Positions 284 to 10,440 of a stretch of DNA of 26,270 nt are shown here, in pieces (position 1 is the first letter of the stretch; each line of letters opens with the position of its first letter). The DNA is from a virus. Taxonomy: Duplodnaviria > Caudoviricetes. The notes beneath the pieces are model-generated. The model was not told the origin of the DNA, made no database searches, and worked only from the letters and a program-made list of their open reading frames with translations. The translations under genes and the position numbers were made by a program. The stretch is from positions 1 to 26,270 of IMG/VR virus record IMGVR_UViG_3300048611_000148. One strand, given 5' to 3'.

Positions 284-658
284 CTATGCGCGCCGGCGAC
301 GGCGGCCTTGAATCTTACGGATGAGGGACAGGGCCTCTAATTTTTCTTCGTGACTGAGATCTTCGATTGCGGAAAGCAGCTCTTCCCCAGCTCGGCGCTG
401 GCGTGAGTCATCAAAGAGCAAGGGGCTAGTGGGGATATCCAGTTGACCGCTTCGCAAGCCTACGCGCTCTTCAATCTTTCTTGCGACTTTCTCGCCAAAT
501 GACTTCCCGCTCGACTGACGGAGCAGGTCGCTAAAGTACTGTGGCTTGGGATTCTCAGGGTCGTAGGCACGCGCAATCTCAGACCGATTTCCCCGAAAGT
601 CCCGCTCAATCAATCGGATGAGATTGCGCCGACGCACGTCCGGGATAGAGCTTTCCAT
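284..658 (-). CDS. CI-like phage repressor (HTH only, no S24 peptidase domain), 124 aa
   Basis: RRRNLIRLIE..NRSEIAR..QYFSDLL..KSFGEKVARKIE resembles phage repressor N-domains. Divergent from a Cro-like gene. Start placed at ATG 658 because the longer ORF overlaps cro. Confidence 0.85.
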   Translation of the reverse strand: MESSIPDVRRRNLIRLIERDFRGNRSEIARAYDPENPKPQYFSDLLRQSSGKSFGEKVARKIEERVGLRSGQLDIPTSPLLFDDSRQRRAGEELLSAIEDLSHEEKLEALSLIRKIQGRRRRRA

Positions 659-664
659 GAGCGC

Positions 665-738
665 ATTGTCGGTCGATTTACACCGAATGGTGAATTCCAC
701 AGACGGTGTTGATTTTCTATACACCGTATGGTGATAAT
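665..738. promoter_or_regulatory. OR-like control region: three operator-like sites plus divergent PR/PRM-like promoters
   Basis: ACACCGAATGGTGA (680-693), ACACCGTATGGTGA (721-734) and degenerate TCCACAGACGGTGT (696-709). Rightward TTGATT(709)-18-GATAAT(733). Leftward -10 GACAAT (670-665). Confidence 0.8.
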
Positions 739-743
739 GGGTC

Positions 744-1004
744 ATGGGTCTGCGCGAATACTGGAAATCTCTATCCCCGGATGGCCGCAACGCTCTTGCC
801 GAGCGGTGCGAAACCACAACTGGACATCTCACCAACGTCGCATATGGCACGCGATCGTGCTCCGTGAAGCTCGCCGTTGCCCTCGAAAGAGAGACCAACG
901 GTAAATTTTCCTGTGAATCGCTCCGTCCTAATTTTGATTGGGCATACCTGCGCGGATCTCTGACCGCTACACCACCCACCGTGGCTAAGCGCAAACGCGC
1001 CTGA
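744..1004 (+). CDS. Cro-like repressor (YdaS/Cro family)
   Basis: ALAERCETTTGHLTNVAYGTRSCSVKLAVALERETNG..CESLRPNFDWAYLR is a typical YdaS/Cro pattern; divergent from cI. Confidence 0.88.
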   Translation: MGLREYWKSLSPDGRNALAERCETTTGHLTNVAYGTRSCSVKLAVALERETNGKFSCESLRPNFDWAYLRGSLTATPPTVAKRKRA

Positions 1005-1367: not shown

Positions 1368-1820
1368 ATGGACAGACAATCACGTTCAAAAAAATTGTCT
1401 AGCCCCGATCAGGCCACGCTTGATCTGCCTGTGCCGCGCCGTAATCCGCGCCCGTTCACGCTCGCCGAAGTCCGTGATTTGAAGAGTGAAAGCGAGGCCA
1501 TTCGCTTCAGCGTCTCGTGCTCTGGATACGAGACTAAAGAGATTCCGATGCTGTTCGGCATCGACGGCGGGCAGTGGTCGAACATCATCAACGGCAAGAA
1601 ACATTTCCCGCACGAGCGGCGCAACGAGTTCATGGACTTCGTCGGCAACGAGATTTTGTTGATGTATGCGTGCGAGTCGCGGCACTACAACTTCGAAACA
1701 CTGCGCCCACATCGGTCAAGCGTCGAAATTGAACTGGAAGCGTCCCGGCGGCGCGAGGCTGAGTTGGAACAGAAGCTCGCCATCCAGGAAGAGTTCGTTC
1801 GCAAGGTGATGGGCAAGTGA
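1368..1820 (+). CDS. CII-like phage transcriptional regulator
   Basis: HTH (GIDGGQWSNIINGKKHFP), FMDFVGNEILLMY motif and C-terminal coiled coil; located downstream of cro. Confidence 0.65.
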   Translation: MDRQSRSKKLSSPDQATLDLPVPRRNPRPFTLAEVRDLKSESEAIRFSVSCSGYETKEIPMLFGIDGGQWSNIINGKKHFPHERRNEFMDFVGNEILLMYACESRHYNFETLRPHRSSVEIELEASRRREAELEQKLAIQEEFVRKVMGK

Positions 1821-2185: not shown

Positions 2186-2255
2186 TTTCCCCGGGCTCCC
2201 GCGAACGAGCATCACAGAGGGCCGAGGGGCGGGCTGTGCTGTCGGCGGTGCGGGG

Positions 2256-2699
2256 ATGAGGTGCTGGATTCCATGGCGGCGTCCACCTGATTTCATTATT
2301 GGGTCAGCAGACAATCCATATCTACTGCGGTGGTGGCTACTTCCGCGCAACCACCTGTTCAACGTCTACTTGCACCACATCAAGCGCGACGATGACGACC
2401 GCGCGCTCCACGACCACCCGTGGTGGAACATCAGCATCATCCTGAAGGGTGGCTACGACGAGATCACACCAACAGGCCGGAAGCTTCGGCGTGCTGGCTC
2501 TGTTGTGTTTCGCCGAGCGACCACAGCCCATCGTCTTGCACTTCCTGTGATCAACGGCGGCATCACCTATTGCTGGTCGCTATTCATCACCGGCCCACGC
2601 ATTCGCGAGTGGGGATTTCATTGCCCACAAGGGTGGCGAGTGTGGCACGAGTTTGTTGATTCAAAGAAGAGGGGACAGGTTGGTCGAGGATGTGAGTGA
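2256..2699 (+). CDS. Conserved phage cupin-like protein (HDHPW motif)
   Basis: YLLRWWLLPRN..NVYLHHI..DDDRALHDHPW..SIILKGGY.E..HRL..WSLFITGP..REWGF. Confidence 0.8.
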   Translation: MRCWIPWRRPPDFIIGSADNPYLLRWWLLPRNHLFNVYLHHIKRDDDDRALHDHPWWNISIILKGGYDEITPTGRKLRRAGSVVFRRATTAHRLALPVINGGITYCWSLFITGPRIREWGFHCPQGWRVWHEFVDSKKRGQVGRGCE

Positions 2700-2750
2700 G
2701 TCGCGCATCGGCATAGCGCAGGCGCCGGGATAGCTCGGCAGACCAGTTAC

Positions 2751-2779
2751 AAAAAAGCCCGCGGTTTTTACGCGCGGGC
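2751..2779 (-). terminator. Intrinsic terminator for antisense (leftward) transcription
   Basis: GCCCGCG/CGCGGGC hairpin (2757-2779) preceded by A6, i.e. hairpin plus U6 on the minus strand. Confidence 0.6.
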
Positions 2780-3022
2780 GAGGTTCATAGCAATGGCCGC
2801 TGGCGGAATAGCAACCGGTAGTGAAACGCCTGTAAAGGCGTGCGGTTCCGTGGACGTCGAACGCGAGTGTGGGCGGGGAAAGCGGCTGGGACTCGGTGGC
2901 CTAGCCGGCCCAGCCGCTTCGCCCTTGGGCTCACAAACGTCGGCGGCCCAAATTGAAAAACGCCTGGTGGGCGAGAACCAACCAGGCGTCTTGAGCAAAC
3001 TCAAAGCTTCAGTAACGGCTTA

Positions 3023-3051
3023 AGTATCGCTCAAGTTCGATCGGGACTCAA
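3023..3051 (-). promoter_or_regulatory. Putative sigma70 antisense promoter
   Basis: Minus strand reads TTGAGT-17 nt-GATACT, pointing at the terminator at 2751-2779. Confidence 0.45.
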
Positions 3052-3316
3052 GGCCCTTCCGCCAGGCCGGAATTGGAGGTGGAAATGCCGATGACGGCCG
3101 TTTCAGAAATCAGGCGCTGCTTGCCACGGCAACCTGGACCCGTGATGCCCCGAAAGGGGGGTCTACAAGCTTTGGAGGCTTGGATGGGGGAACGACAAGT
3201 ACCGCGGTTTAGGCCGCCTCGGGTCCTGAAGGGGATTCCGGACGTGAATCCAGGAGGGAAGGATCACGGGGGAAAGTGGCGGAACTTTGTCCGATAGAAA
3301 CGCGAGGTGTGTCGAA

Positions 3317-3631
3317 ATGAGCGTTGCACGCATGTTCTGCCAACAATGCAATGGAGAGACGCTGCATACAGGAATGACCTGTGTGCACTGTGGTAGTGGT
3401 TCAGTCGTCCCGATCAATCCAGTACGAAAGCGTGGATATAACAACGCCGCCGTCCGTCGGCCGTACACCGTCGAATGGCGCGGCGAGCTGCTATCGCTGA
3501 AGCAGATTGCGAGGCGGGAAGGCGTCGCTTACTCAACGCTGACGGAGCGTTTCAGAAACGACCTTCGCGGCGACAAGTTGGTGGCGAAGGTGCCGCCGAT
3601 GCGGGCGAGACCGAAGGCGAGGGCAGCGTGA
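3317..3631 (+). CDS. Zn-ribbon plus HTH DNA-binding protein
   Basis: GAGGT SD. CQQC..CVHC, then VEWRGELLSLKQIARREGVAYSTLTERF (HTH of the type appended to phage HNH proteins). Confidence 0.7.
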   Translation: MSVARMFCQQCNGETLHTGMTCVHCGSGSVVPINPVRKRGYNNAAVRRPYTVEWRGELLSLKQIARREGVAYSTLTERFRNDLRGDKLVAKVPPMRARPKARAA

Positions 3632-3660
3632 CCATCATGGCTAAGGTTCCACGTGGAGAG

Positions 3661-3669
3661 TTATCCACA
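3661..3669 (+). promoter_or_regulatory. Perfect DnaA box (TTATCCACA)
   Basis: Exact consensus and the only perfect copy noticed in the window; function unproven. Confidence 0.35.
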
Positions 3670-3703
3670 GCGCGTCCCAAGCCGCCGGAGCGTCACTCGT
3701 GAC

Positions 3704-3904
3704 ATGCGCTGGCGAAAATACCAGCACTACTGGCGTCGCGCCGACGGCAAATATTTCATCTGCCGCTCCCCCTGCCCAATACGCCACGCCGACGTCTACC
3801 TGGCTTGGTACGGCAGCACCAGCATCAGCGAGCGCGCACGTGATTCGTTCGAGTCCGCAGTGGCGGATTGCACTGCGCACATACAGCAAACATTGAAGGG
3901 GTGA
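3704..3904 (+). CDS. Hypothetical protein
   Basis: ATG 3704 after GGAG; fits the tightly packed operon. Confidence 0.55.
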   Translation: MRWRKYQHYWRRADGKYFICRSPCPIRHADVYLAWYGSTSISERARDSFESAVADCTAHIQQTLKG

Positions 3905-6128: not shown

Positions 6129-6805
6129 GCGAAGAAACATCAAAAGAGAAAATCGCCAGAGCAGTGACGGACTTGGAGTCCATTGCCGAGTACGCATACT
6201 CGAATGGCCTGCATGAGTTTGGCTACACGCCCCACGAGACGCTGCTGGCTGAGATTCAGCGCCTACACACTCTGCTTGGGAGTATCGCGTTACCTGACAC
6301 AAATCCGATGGGGCGCGATGCTGACTGGGTGCTTTTTCGTAAGCGAAAAGAGGAGCGAGCGCTCGCGAATCACGGGGCGGATTTGATTGCCGGCCGAACC
6401 TACGCGGATACAGCTGGTACGTACGCCGCGCCATCACCATTCGCAACGCAAATGGACACCTCCGACAGTTCGCCGGTGCCGCAGCAAGAGATTGTGAGCG
6501 CCATTCACCATCACGCACGCGAGATTGCCCGACTGACTGAGGCGTGGCCGGCACCAAGCGACTCAGATGATGACGGAATAGGTGCTGGCATACCACCTGA
6601 CGGGGTACCGCGTCTGCCGAGACTCCTGAAACGATGCGAGGAAGCCATTGCCGATCTGTTCGAGTTCGAAAAGGTCGAGCGCGACAAATACGTTGGGTAC
6701 CCATTGTGGGATCGCCACAACCTGCGCGTGGTTGAAGTCGGCGAGTTGCTGGCCGATGTGCGAGCCGCGTTACCGCCGGATGATTTAGCAAAGGCGGGCA
6801 CGTGA
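6125..6805 (+). CDS. Hypothetical phage protein
   Basis: 226 aa ORF coupled at both ends by GTGA overlaps. Confidence 0.65.
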   Translation: MSEETSKEKIARAVTDLESIAEYAYSNGLHEFGYTPHETLLAEIQRLHTLLGSIALPDTNPMGRDADWVLFRKRKEERALANHGADLIAGRTYADTAGTYAAPSPFATQMDTSDSSPVPQQEIVSAIHHHAREIARLTEAWPAPSDSDDDGIGAGIPPDGVPRLPRLLKRCEEAIADLFEFEKVERDKYVGYPLWDRHNLRVVEVGELLADVRAALPPDDLAKAGT

Positions 6806-7242
6806 GCGCCAACACCCTGGACCGCTTCGCGCGGCAGGAGATCGACGCCGAACTCAACAGTTGGGGCCGGTGGATTGAGCGGCACGCGGACTACACCGGT
6901 CACCCCAGCGTGAATTTTCTTGTCGCGCAGTTCTACGGCGCCGGCGGCAGCACCCCAGGGCATCGTGTGCTTTGCCTGGACATGCCGGACCACATCTACG
7001 CCACGCACGCCCGGGTCCTCAGGCTCAATGAGCGCGAACGCGAGGCCGTCTACCTGTTTTTCGCGGTGAAACTCAAAGCGGATGGCACGCTGTGGACGGT
7101 GGCCGAGAAGAGCCGAATCTATGGCATCAAGGAAGAATCACTGCGCCGCAGGCTCGCCCGAGCACGATATCGAATCCTCGGTCTGCCGGTTCCCGACGCT
7201 TTAACTGGCAAACGAGTTGCTAACTTGTCCGCTGTGGGATAA
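6802..7242 (+). CDS. Late-gene antiterminator Q-like protein
   Basis: IDAELNSWGRW N-terminus and C-terminal sigma-R4-like HTH (LRRRLARARYRI). Last gene of the early operon, followed by a promoter and terminator. Confidence 0.75.
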   Translation: MSANTLDRFARQEIDAELNSWGRWIERHADYTGHPSVNFLVAQFYGAGGSTPGHRVLCLDMPDHIYATHARVLRLNEREREAVYLFFAVKLKADGTLWTVAEKSRIYGIKEESLRRRLARARYRILGLPVPDALTGKRVANLSAVG

Positions 7243-7245
7243 TTT
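7217..7245 (+). promoter_or_regulatory. Putative late promoter pR'
   Basis: TTGCTA-17-TAATTT overlapping the end of Q; canonical position. Confidence 0.45.
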
Positions 7246-7270
7246 TAGGCTATTGTCAAAAATAGTCACT

Positions 7271-7299
7271 GAGGCCCGCCAAGCGGGTCTTTTCGTTTT
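7271..7299 (+). terminator. tR'-like intrinsic terminator
   Basis: AGGCCCGC-CAA-GCGGGTCT followed by TTTCGTTTT. Confidence 0.8.
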
Positions 7300-7361
7300 C
7301 GCGCTCGCCGAGTCGCCACCTCATCCCCTTCCGGCACTCGGCCAGCGCGGTCCGCTCTCGG

Positions 7362-8230: not shown

Positions 8231-8258
8231 AGTATCATAATCTGCGACGGTGTGTCAA
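8231..8258 (-). promoter_or_regulatory. Sigma70 promoter for the leftward 3-gene unit
   Basis: Minus strand TTGACA-16-GATACT. Confidence 0.6.
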
Positions 8259-8261
8259 CAA

Positions 8262-9440
8262 ATGAGACTTACGGGATACGCGTATACATTCGCTGCGGCG
8301 ACACTGCTGTGCGCGGCTATTGCGTATGCCGACGGCACGACCGAGCACCAGACCGCCGTCAAACTCTACCGCGGCAGCACGATCATCGCGGCCAGCGATC
8401 CCAATCACCGCGAGTACCAACCCGATTTCACGATGCCGGTGTGCTTGGGCCTGAAAACCAAGTTGGGCGACGCGGAGAAATTGGCCAGGGATGACGGCAA
8501 GTCAACGTACAAGTGCCAACTGGAAGATCGGGACATCATTGCGTTCCATCCGGCGCCAACCGCGACCTGCGGCACCAAGCCCGCCGACGAACAGCGCCAA
8601 CAGACCTGCCCAGCCGGCACCGTGGGCACCTGGCTCCAGGATAGCGTCTACACCCTGCAACCTTACCCCGACTGCTGGGTACAGGGCGACTGGTCACCGA
8701 GCTCGCCGCCAGCCGGCATGTGCGCCCCAATCACGCCCGCGTTGACACTCAAAATCAACGCCGGCGGCCCCGCCATCAGTGACTACGTGGCGGATCGCCA
8801 CTACGTCAACGGGTTGACCACCAACAACTGCAACCGCACGTGGTCCGGCATCTTTGCCACGCGCCGCTACGTTCCAGCCCCAGGCACGCTGCGCTATCGC
8901 ATCCCGGTAGCCAATGGCCAATATACCGTCCGCTTGCTGTGGCGTGAGTGCTGGAATTCGGTGGCCGGCAAACGCGTGCTGTCGGCAACCATTGAAGGCG
9001 CGCAGATCGCAGCCCTGGACACGTACCGGCCCGCTGGCGACGTCATCGTCGAAGAGCGTGTGGTGAGCGTCACCGATGGCGCGATCGACGTTGCTGTGAC
9101 ATCTGTGACCGGCGACGCCATGATCAATGGCATCGATGTGGTGGCGGGCGGGTCTGTGCCAACGCCTGAGCCGCAGCCGGCGACGGGCACTGCCGCGCTC
9201 ACCTGGACGTCACCGACGCAGAACACCGATAACTCGGCGCTCACCGATCTCGCGGGCTATCGAATCTCCTACGGCACGACGCCCGATCTTGCCCAGGTTG
9301 TGCAACTCTCGAATCCCGCGTTGAGCGGCTACACCATCGAGCGGTTGTCGCCGGGTACGTGGTATTTCAGCATCAAGGCTTACACAGCCAAGGGCAACGA
9401 GAGCGTGTCGTCGGGCACCGTTTCCAAGGTCGTCAAATGA
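8262..9440 (+). CDS. Exported protein: signal peptide, Cys-rich region, malectin-like domain and fibronectin type III domain
   Basis: MRLTGYAYTFAAATLLCAAIAYA signal. KINAGG..YVADRHY..YRIPVANGQYTVRL.. (malectin). LTWTSPTQNTDNSALTDLAGYRISYG..PGTWYFSIKAY (FN3). Confidence 0.82.
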   Translation: MRLTGYAYTFAAATLLCAAIAYADGTTEHQTAVKLYRGSTIIAASDPNHREYQPDFTMPVCLGLKTKLGDAEKLARDDGKSTYKCQLEDRDIIAFHPAPTATCGTKPADEQRQQTCPAGTVGTWLQDSVYTLQPYPDCWVQGDWSPSSPPAGMCAPITPALTLKINAGGPAISDYVADRHYVNGLTTNNCNRTWSGIFATRRYVPAPGTLRYRIPVANGQYTVRLLWRECWNSVAGKRVLSATIEGAQIAALDTYRPAGDVIVEERVVSVTDGAIDVAVTSVTGDAMINGIDVVAGGSVPTPEPQPATGTAALTWTSPTQNTDNSALTDLAGYRISYGTTPDLAQVVQLSNPALSGYTIERLSPGTWYFSIKAYTAKGNESVSSGTVSKVVK

Positions 9441-9658
9441 CTTGGCGTGAAGCGATGGACGCCGCCGCCAAGGCGTATCTCACCGACCTGCTCGAGCACA
9501 CCGGCTGGAACGTCGCCGCTGCCGCGAGAATCGCCGGGCTCAATCGCACGGACATGTTCAAGCGCTTGCGGCGTCATGGTGTGCGCAGGCCGCAACCTTA
9601 TGCAGTACGGGGAGCCTTGAGCCTGCGGACAAACCGCTGCGCCGCCGTGCCATCGTAA
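9437..9658 (+). CDS. Stand-alone Fis-family HTH protein
   Basis: AYLTDLLEHTGWNVAAAARIAGLNRTDMFKRLRRHGV; ATGA-coupled to the upstream gene. Confidence 0.8.
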   Translation: MTWREAMDAAAKAYLTDLLEHTGWNVAAAARIAGLNRTDMFKRLRRHGVRRPQPYAVRGALSLRTNRCAAVPS

Positions 9659-10341
9659 GCGGTCCAGGCCGCATCGAAGATTCGGTTATAGACCGCTTCG
9701 ATTCGCCACCGCGGCGGCCACATGGTGCGCGCCCAGGTGTATTCGAGTTGCTCAGCCCACGTCGTCGCCGGGAAGAACTGACGTAGCCAGTCATTGACCT
9801 TGAGGTCGAGGACGAGGTGATAGCGCGCCTCGTCGCCGTCGTTGCGGACGAAGTGCCATTTGGAAAAATTGACGTAGTAGAAGCGCCCCGGCCGCATCGT
9901 GATCACCTCACCGCCGACGTGAAACGTGACTTTCGGATTAGTGATGATTGGCACATGCAAGCGGACTTGGTTGAACGCCAAGCAACCCACCTCGGCGTTG
10001 ACGTCTCGGTGCAAACCGATGCCAGCGCCGGGCGCGAGTTTCAGGATGCGGACTCGGCCCTGCGGGCACTTGAAGTAGTCGAGGATTTCGCGGAAGTACG
10101 GCAGCTGATCGACCAGTGGCGTACGTACGAACTCGCTGAAATCCCATGACGGGCGCTGTGACTCGCGGCCTGACATTTCGCCGTGCTTGGAGACCAGTAA
10201 TGCGGCGCGCCAACCGCGGTCAAGGGTCGGGTCGTAGTGGTCGAGCAGCTTGTTTTCGTCGATCTTCTTCAGGTCAGCTTTCATGCGATCGACGTCGAAT
10301 TTGAACGGGAACGCGTCGGTTAGATCGATCCAGGTTTTCAT
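9598..10341 (-). CDS. Aspartyl/asparaginyl beta-hydroxylase-like 2OG-Fe(II) oxygenase
   Basis: RVRILKLAPGAGIGLHRD..RLHVPIITNP..HFVRNDG..RYHLVLD gives the HxD..H facial triad and 2OG-binding Arg. Confidence 0.88.
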   Translation of the reverse strand: MKTWIDLTDAFPFKFDVDRMKADLKKIDENKLLDHYDPTLDRGWRAALLVSKHGEMSGRESQRPSWDFSEFVRTPLVDQLPYFREILDYFKCPQGRVRILKLAPGAGIGLHRDVNAEVGCLAFNQVRLHVPIITNPKVTFHVGGEVITMRPGRFYYVNFSKWHFVRNDGDEARYHLVLDLKVNDWLRQFFPATTWAEQLEYTWARTMWPPRWRIEAVYNRIFDAAWTAYDGTAAQRFVRRLKAPRTA

Positions 10342-10440
10342 TGCTATACCCCTATCCATTTGTCCCCCGGATCGTAGAGGAAATCGCCGGCAAAAACCCG
10401 GCCGAGTTCACTTAACGCCACCGTCGGATTCTTTAACACG

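Follow-up and report, generated by a model that had tools for sequence, protein, structure and literature searches.

Gene layout and the replication slot

The window, meaning the whole stretch of DNA analysed here, is a linear virus record of 26,270 nt that is ~50% complete and lacks the left early operon as well as the last part of the tail region. PHROGs matches gave the gene order cI-like, cro, cII-position gene, nin-type genes and Q-like, followed by terminase, portal-type, major head and tail genes. The interval of interest, 2700-3316, lies in the early operon, and we infer that the rightward early transcript that would cross it starts just upstream of cro. The landmarks are as follows.

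284-691 (-): cI-like repressor (PHROG 5736 and 12107, E 2e-8 and 9e-8)
709-738: promoter-like site before cro, 9/12
744-1004 (+): cro-like gene (PHROG 35, E 6e-12)
1368-1820 (+): cII-position gene, named by position, with no family match
2256-2699 (+): cysteine-dioxygenase-like gene, 5' neighbour of the element (PHROG 4786, E 9e-56)
3317-3631 (+): zinc-finger plus HTH-like gene, 3' neighbour of the element (family searches)
6802-7242 (+): Q-like antiterminator, end of the early operon (PHROG 79, E 0.005; Pfam PF06530, E 0.012)

Only one sequencing run containing this DNA was found, possibly the source of the window, and one of its contigs spans 2209-3884 with zero differences, making an assembly frameshift unlikely. 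No RNA run was listed among the sequencing runs holding this DNA. Between Q and terminase, a 396-aa ORF (8250-9440) has malectin and fibronectin-III domain matches in Pfam, and a 253-aa ORF on the minus strand (9598-10359), opposing the late direction, has no PHROG match; by eye we take the latter to resemble an aspartyl/asparaginyl hydroxylase.

The ORFs of the window were compared with initiator, helicase, primase and polymerase families using PHROGs (24 + 22 ORFs), Pfam (26) and NCBIfam (16), and no match was obtained. The three collections thus agree with an earlier note on this DNA that no replication gene is recognisable between cro and Q, and the same holds for the rest of the window; specifically, none of them placed a lambda-type O/P module between cII and nin. 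An ESM Atlas search with ORF 6125 gave no lead. An unrecognised initiator could be hidden among the many family-less early ORFs of the window, and replication genes may lie in the missing part of the genome.

The neighbourhoods of cII relatives indicate what would be expected at this position. One relative, 73% identical in cII (L001), has an initiator, a primase zinc finger ORF and a DnaB-like helicase in the slot, and in L131, a more distant cII match (one among the 400 scored genomes), the gene immediately behind cII is DnaD/O-like and 325 aa long. Since both relatives with retrievable surroundings have O-like initiators there, the interval occupies the position of the replication module, as the earlier note had proposed. 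Scans of viral contigs with the downstream protein or a cII alignment yielded nothing further. The element was absent beside all 14 of 14 related loci of the cysteine-dioxygenase-like gene.

Structure and conservation of the interval

The interval is a real, uncatalogued, bipartite non-coding element in the replication slot. Its predicted features, several of them shared with a homologous locus (L021) described below, are:

2751-2779 (-): hairpin followed by six U, predicted leftward terminator from sequence and fold; not in L021 and not in the terminator scan
2793-3023: 76-aa ORF called by gene finders
2826-2841: 6-bp hairpin with GTAA loop, from the fold; no homologue found
2875-2924: hairpin 1, with an invariant 21-of-22-nt core (2889-2910) carried by a stem that covaries freely; also present in unrelated phages
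2925-2951: hairpin 2, with a conserved ACAAAC loop motif shared with L021
2953-3017 (-): predicted antisense RNA of ~65 nt, based on two features that L021 retains, hairpin 3 and the promoter-like site
2957-2992 (-): hairpin 3 and U-run, the U-run being on the minus strand in the window and L021
3023-3051 (-): predicted leftward sigma-70-like promoter, TTGAGT-17-GATACT, 8/12
3054-3300 (+): G-rich 3' half, candidate primer-precursor region, with modest fold and three G5-6 runs; no homologue found
3085-3297: 70-aa ORF behind GGAGGT

The motifs quoted in the earlier note were all located where it had placed them, including the hairpin at 2826-2841, the stem 2880-2890/2909-2919, the stem at 2960-2989, CCCC-GAAA-GGGG at 3148-3159, the segments 3136-3146, 3220-3226 and 3263-3270, and the G-runs at 3156, 3186 and 3268. 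On both strands the fold of the complete 617 nt beat every one of 20 shuffles (plus, z -4.92; minus, z -5.78). The description of the interval as almost fully base-paired was an overstatement, the folding signal being uneven and concentrated in 2750-3100. For 150-nt windows of the plus strand, z ranged from -2.8 to -5.0 over 2751-3100, was near zero over 3001-3250 and reached -3.2 at 3151-3300, against a background in which 2 of 85 windows fell below -3. The segment 3054-3300 as a whole gave z -1.80, with 9 of 200 shuffles equally good, and the minus strand of 2745-3020 gave z -4.83. The only strongly folding background windows were 601-750 (z -5.7), which covers operator-like inverted repeats between cI and cro, and 7201-7350 (z -5.9), the region directly after Q.

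A single large ornate RNA of ~600 nt, as first described, therefore does not match a fold confined mainly to 2750-3100, and the interval is better divided in two. When large ornate phage RNAs of the GOLLD, ROOL and OLE type were taken as the yardstick, homology extended over 2878-3053 only and covariation over hairpin 1 only. The large domain said to be closed by 2795-2805/2938-2948 could not be upheld: the two segments are only 82% complementary, are unpaired with each other in the minimum-energy fold, and if paired would exclude the hairpin at 2925-2951 that L021 conserves. The alternative pairings described as switch-like for 3136-3146 are lopsided in the model, at ~0.82 with 3220-3226 versus ~0.1 with 3263-3270. 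Three of the nine plus-strand G5+ runs of the window do lie at 3156-3272, but local shuffles match this count (P 0.18). Two copies of TGGCGGAA, at 2800-2808 (upstream) and 3277-3284 (downstream), are complementary to the loop sequence at 3057-3065, a layout that we take to recall the P4 CI RNA system.

Comparison of the interval with Rfam, one of the checks suggested earlier, returned no match at cut-off and five chance-level matches at E 1-10. Searches by blastn against 50,697 phage records and plasmid records gave short chance pieces only. Pattern scans for the element gave chance matches only (5/5, 4/4 and 6/6, the last in GTDB genomes, where five of the six were inspected and the sixth scored weakly on a two-sequence profile).

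L021 was reached by a metagenome search with the zinc-finger/HTH-like 3' neighbour gene, which found three loci. Its gene order is cI, cro, a cII-position gene, a 78-aa gene and then ~480 non-coding bases, with no O/P. It aligns with window positions 2878-3053 (E 4.7e-9), and the match holds outside hairpin 1 (score 35, versus a highest score of 24 among 300 shuffles); positions 2700-2870 and 3054-3316 could not be aligned to it (P 0.32 and 0.93). Between the window and L021, hairpin 1 shows a G-C to A-T pair swap and the loss of one base from each arm, and hairpin 2 a G-U to A-U change. One-base indels in L021 break the frame of the 76-aa ORF across 2879-2967. Together, these pairing-consistent and frame-breaking changes indicate that the 5' half is non-coding: L021 keeps the three hairpins and breaks the ORF.

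The interval had been said to contain no credible ORF. Two ORFs are in fact present. Comparison with 1.84 billion representatives, which gave repetitive proteins only, and a word search found no homologue of either one. A pair of small orphan genes (2793-3023 and 3085-3297), or a decayed gene, with folding that is a terminator by-product, is a very improbable account of the interval. The gene-finder call for 2793-3023, the GGAGGT before 3085 and the weak folding of the 3' half speak for such genes, yet they have no homologues, the 5' ORF is largely refuted by the broken frame in L021, and in codon-bias score 3085-3297 ranks second from the bottom among 20 ORFs and last among those on the plus strand.

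The layout shared with L021 points to the minus strand. At the same offset as the leftward promoter-like site of the window, L021 has TTGAGT-17-CAATAT (7/12); both sites fall under the 9/12 cut of the promoter scan, which lists neither this promoter nor the terminator at hairpin 3. Judged from this arrangement, the conserved half probably acts as a short antisense RNA, a feature missed in the earlier note, and read-through to 2751 is predicted to lengthen the RNA to ~265 nt.

Hairpin 1 has a distribution of its own. Its core was detected in 18 viral contigs, 7 of which carry the long stem (three of them copies of one phage); the remaining 11 were taken as chance matches. Across seven distinct examples, 17 cells were changed on both sides of the stem, a value reached by 0 of 500 shuffles and falling away in slid controls; this set includes the window and L021 and was picked by eye for the stem, which inflates the result. 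The minus strand folds better in 5 of the 7, and the invariant loop suggests a partner that binds it. Hairpin 1 precedes a full O-like initiator in L036, lies in an early operon with no replication match among 14 ORFs in L039, and occurs in late operons in L024, L026 and L034. Its presence beside a full initiator and in late operons marks it as a portable element and not an origin marker. The late copies (L026:3976-4036, L034:3977-4038 and L024:3983-4036) lie directly after a probable major capsid gene and in a late leader. A hairpin-1 model searched over 77 sources recovered only its own source loci and copies, and nothing in 14 genomes. L021 and L039 gave only short chance pieces by blastn against phage records.

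These observations bear on the main rival to an origin, a purely regulatory locus comprising an OOP-like antisense RNA, terminators and an attenuator-like leader for the nin-type genes, with the replication genes located in the half of the genome that is missing. We judge it rather unlikely. It would account for the conserved, strongly folded part being the antisense-like half, and for leftward promoter-like sites following hairpin 1 both in L036 (10/12), which has a normal initiator, and in L039 (11/12); a contig only 50% complete also leaves room for it. It does not account for an O/P slot left empty in the window, L021 and L039 alike.

Betaproteobacteria-1 RNA in the homologous locus

Directly after the shared hairpins, 290 nt of L021 gave a weak match to the Rfam family Betaproteobacteria-1 (RF02932; 27.2 bits versus a cut-off of 49.4). 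A search pattern drawn from this match retrieved 58 viral contigs, divided by eye into 32 distinct members, 11 near-copies and 15 chance matches. The Rfam cut-off was passed by 5 of 18 tested, the others being longer forms of 200-330 nt. Ten short-form members have 42 predicted pairs, 17 with double changes, and a covariance model built from them recovers L021 (25.4 bits, E 1e-6), a recovery made partly circular by the shared search pattern. On these sequence comparisons we assign the 290 nt of L021 to a long form of the family. Among L056-L113, loci such as L062:164-461 and L079:2860-3057 show a phage RNA of 200-330 nt of which the 120-nt Rfam model takes in the 5' part alone, and within the long RNA a GTGGG could pair with the terminal YYCAC.

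Members of the family contain an internal repeat. The first copy, X1, follows an invariant GGCTCC, and the second, X2, follows the terminal YCACC 49-96 nt further on. With wobble allowed, X1 and X2 match at 7.2 of 8 positions within a phage and at 3.9 of 8 between phages. Where they differ, 33 cases have G in X1 and A in X2 and two cases the opposite, both of the latter coming from two loci in which the wrong downstream partner was taken; these counts rest on 26 loci, of which L061 and L094 have a wrong partner and L067 and L100 match poorly. By hand count, 20 of the 33 G-for-A differences are one conserved position, and the other 13 come from about six lineages, none reversed. The best helix of X2 within the RNA is 5-7 bp in most loci. 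A comparable repeat in L021 is exact over 14 nt (P 0.01), and the repeats of several true family members are not individually significant. An rG-dT pair is tolerated and an rA-dC pair is not, so the direction of the G-for-A differences is the one expected if X1 in the RNA paired with the template strand of X2. We therefore read X1, from the repeat pattern, as a putative guide for R-loop formation; the asymmetry would be the same if the partner were an antisense RNA or single-stranded DNA.

Among 25 annotated loci, several of them from related phages, a helicase, primase, loader or initiator lay among the three nearest ORFs per side in 13 and in none of the other 12. The initiator matches near the RNA cover C-terminal parts of the profiles only. 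In L065, L101, L111, L067 and the near-complete genome G182 (L123:2306-2683), short ORFs match O-like initiators over the C-terminal part alone, as if in those carriers the RNA had replaced the origin-binding half of the initiator. Directly 3' of the RNA, L110 has tandem 9-nt and 8-nt iteron-like repeats.

Five near-complete carriers (94-100% complete) were scanned for replication genes, using ORFs of at least 60 aa for G162, G174 and G182, 100-700 aa for G172 and 95-900 aa for G176; nine ORFs that were small or overlapping were set aside. Among the ORFs scanned in G162 and G174, no initiator, primase, helicase or polymerase was found. G182 encodes a 126-aa C-terminal part of an initiator and an SSB; G176 encodes a primase, a helicase and a clamp, with no initiator match; and G172 encodes DnaB as well as a probable full initiator, at a distance of 16 kb from the RNA. 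Scanning of 5 and 151 genomes with RF02932 gave no match, and was uninformative because the control matched nowhere either. A purely regulatory locus leaves unexplained both the replication-associated RNA right behind the shared hairpins of L021 and the two near-complete carriers of the L021-type RNA in which the scan shows no replication gene.

Rfam lists Betaproteobacteria-1 as an sRNA and states no function; the family presumably comes from the study of the plasmid-associated motifs ARRPOF, GEBRO and PAGEV. No literature linking Betaproteobacteria-1 or the window element to phage replication was found in a search largely limited to open-access journals. The main text on the plasmid motifs, in the part available, does not name Betaproteobacteria-1 (PMC5737381). 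The sRNA label, and the roughly half of annotated loci with no replication neighbour, would suit a trans-acting phage non-coding RNA, making up the 3' half or the whole element, whose task lies outside replication and whose place in the early operon is fortuitous; this seems quite improbable, as it accounts neither for the missing O/P genes nor for the G-for-A asymmetry of the sister family.

The 3' half of the window is not itself a Betaproteobacteria-1 member. RF02932 gave no match to it at E 10 (cut-off 49.4 bits), nhmmer with profiles from 27 and 10 long-form members found nothing in the interval better than E 7, and the covariance model, run on the interval with filters off, reached at best 2.1 bits, compared with 25.4 for L021. 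The 3' half could be aligned neither to the 3' part of L021 (P 0.93) nor to L039 (P 0.49). Its composition over 3054-3316 is 96 G versus 62 C. Its best repeat, a 9-nt candidate at 3184/3266 with copies 82 nt apart, was not above shuffles, and the best wobble-aware repeats were at chance level (P 0.54-0.66). What relates it to the Betaproteobacteria-1 RNA is location, that RNA lying behind the shared hairpins in L021 and within phage replication modules; it differs in having neither the invariant motifs of the family nor a significant X1/X2 repeat.

A candidate RNA-primed origin

The position of the interval, the missing replication genes and the sister cassette behind the same hairpins in L021 together lead to an origin reading for this phage. 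We tentatively propose, with somewhat less than even confidence and largely by analogy, that the two-part cassette may work as an RNA-primed replication origin under antisense control. A transcript begun at the cro promoter would run across the element, and its G-rich 3' half, while still being made, would re-anneal to the template around 3268 to form an R-loop. RNase H would cut the hybrid, host DNA polymerase I would extend the primer, and host restart proteins would load the helicase, as in ColE1. Read-through, or the making of the primer, would be adjusted by the predicted short antisense RNA from the conserved 5' hairpins. What speaks for priming is the RNA at the same position in L021, and not the window's own 3' half.

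A close parallel in design is ColE1 RNA II, which is of similar size, with 555 nt to the origin in ColE1 according to the accessible portion of PMC11012335. Common to both are a short antisense RNA (predicted here; compare RNA I) within a long transcript, separated G-runs and a slot without an initiator gene. In the ColE1 record, 247 nt separate two G6 runs, and the available text of one study describes pairing of an rG stretch with a template dC stretch as essential for a persistent hybrid (PMC4412123). The two differ in that the predicted antisense unit of the window lies mid-element and not at the 5' end, and in that no dedicated rightward promoter was found at the start of the interval. 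Kinship in sequence, as opposed to design, was not borne out (local score 25 versus a null mean of 21.4, P 0.10), and no plasmid in PLSDB matched over 6% of the query. A likeness of window 2951-2965 to the ColE1 origin (14/15 nt, after the second G6 run; blastn E 0.07) was rejected as not significant.

The predicted antisense RNA also resembles lambda OOP (pO-oop-tO) in being short and self-terminating and in its place between cII and the replication slot; its length would be ~65 nt, compared with the 77 nt given for OOP in the part of PMC3349717 available. In the window, however, the predicted RNA ends at 2953 or 2751 and the cII-position gene at 1820, so that the two do not overlap and lie >1 kb apart, and no O gene follows the RNA.

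RNA-based origins in phages have a precedent in the cluster A mycobacteriophages Alma, LadyBird and RedRock, for which the accessible text describes a rep-less region of 400-500 bp with an expressed non-coding RNA needed for replication (PMC7157519). Those origins adjoin parABS and serve a plasmid prophage, their deletion leaving lytic growth normal (same partial source, PMC7157519), and the interval has no blastn similarity to any of the 50,697 phage records. ARRPOF, GEBRO and PAGEV are likewise structured elements, of 223-349 nt, in plasmid replication regions, as far as the available text of PMC5737381 describes them; the window differs in having no Rfam match at cut-off or at E up to 1.

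The same source, in the part available, makes the point for plasmid motifs that covariation and G-T tolerance fit RNA and single-stranded DNA alike (PMC5737381). The interval might accordingly be an origin acting with no RNA primer, as single-stranded DNA hairpins or as protein-binding DNA for primosome or primase loading or for a small unrecognised initiator, and early ORFs with no family do exist. We consider this improbable, as the conserved promoter-and-terminator layout points to a transcript, and neither an iteron array nor an AT-rich unwinding region was found in the interval.

The RNA-primed reading can be extended beyond this phage. Lambdoid phages might exchange the O initiator gene for interchangeable RNA origin cassettes, one being the long Betaproteobacteria-1 RNA, whose phage-specific internal guide would invade the template strand 50-95 nt downstream and so seed an R-loop primer, and the window having a second, uncatalogued cassette with the same antisense module; we regard this generalisation as possible but doubtful. 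Many environmental temperate phages show no replication gene, and their replication would be explained if structured RNAs in the O/P slot were origins. RNA-primed origins would then reach beyond ColE1 plasmids and the plasmid prophages of mycobacteria into lambdoid phages, the orphan Rfam family Betaproteobacteria-1 would gain a testable job, and small protein-free origins would be useful vector parts for uncultured soil bacteria.

Apart from these, ~450 structured non-coding bases with hairpin 1 lie in an early operon at L039:3975-4420 (z -2.46), possibly a third type of cassette. The phage of L039 also encodes a CsrA-like regulator (L052:2536-3006, minus strand).
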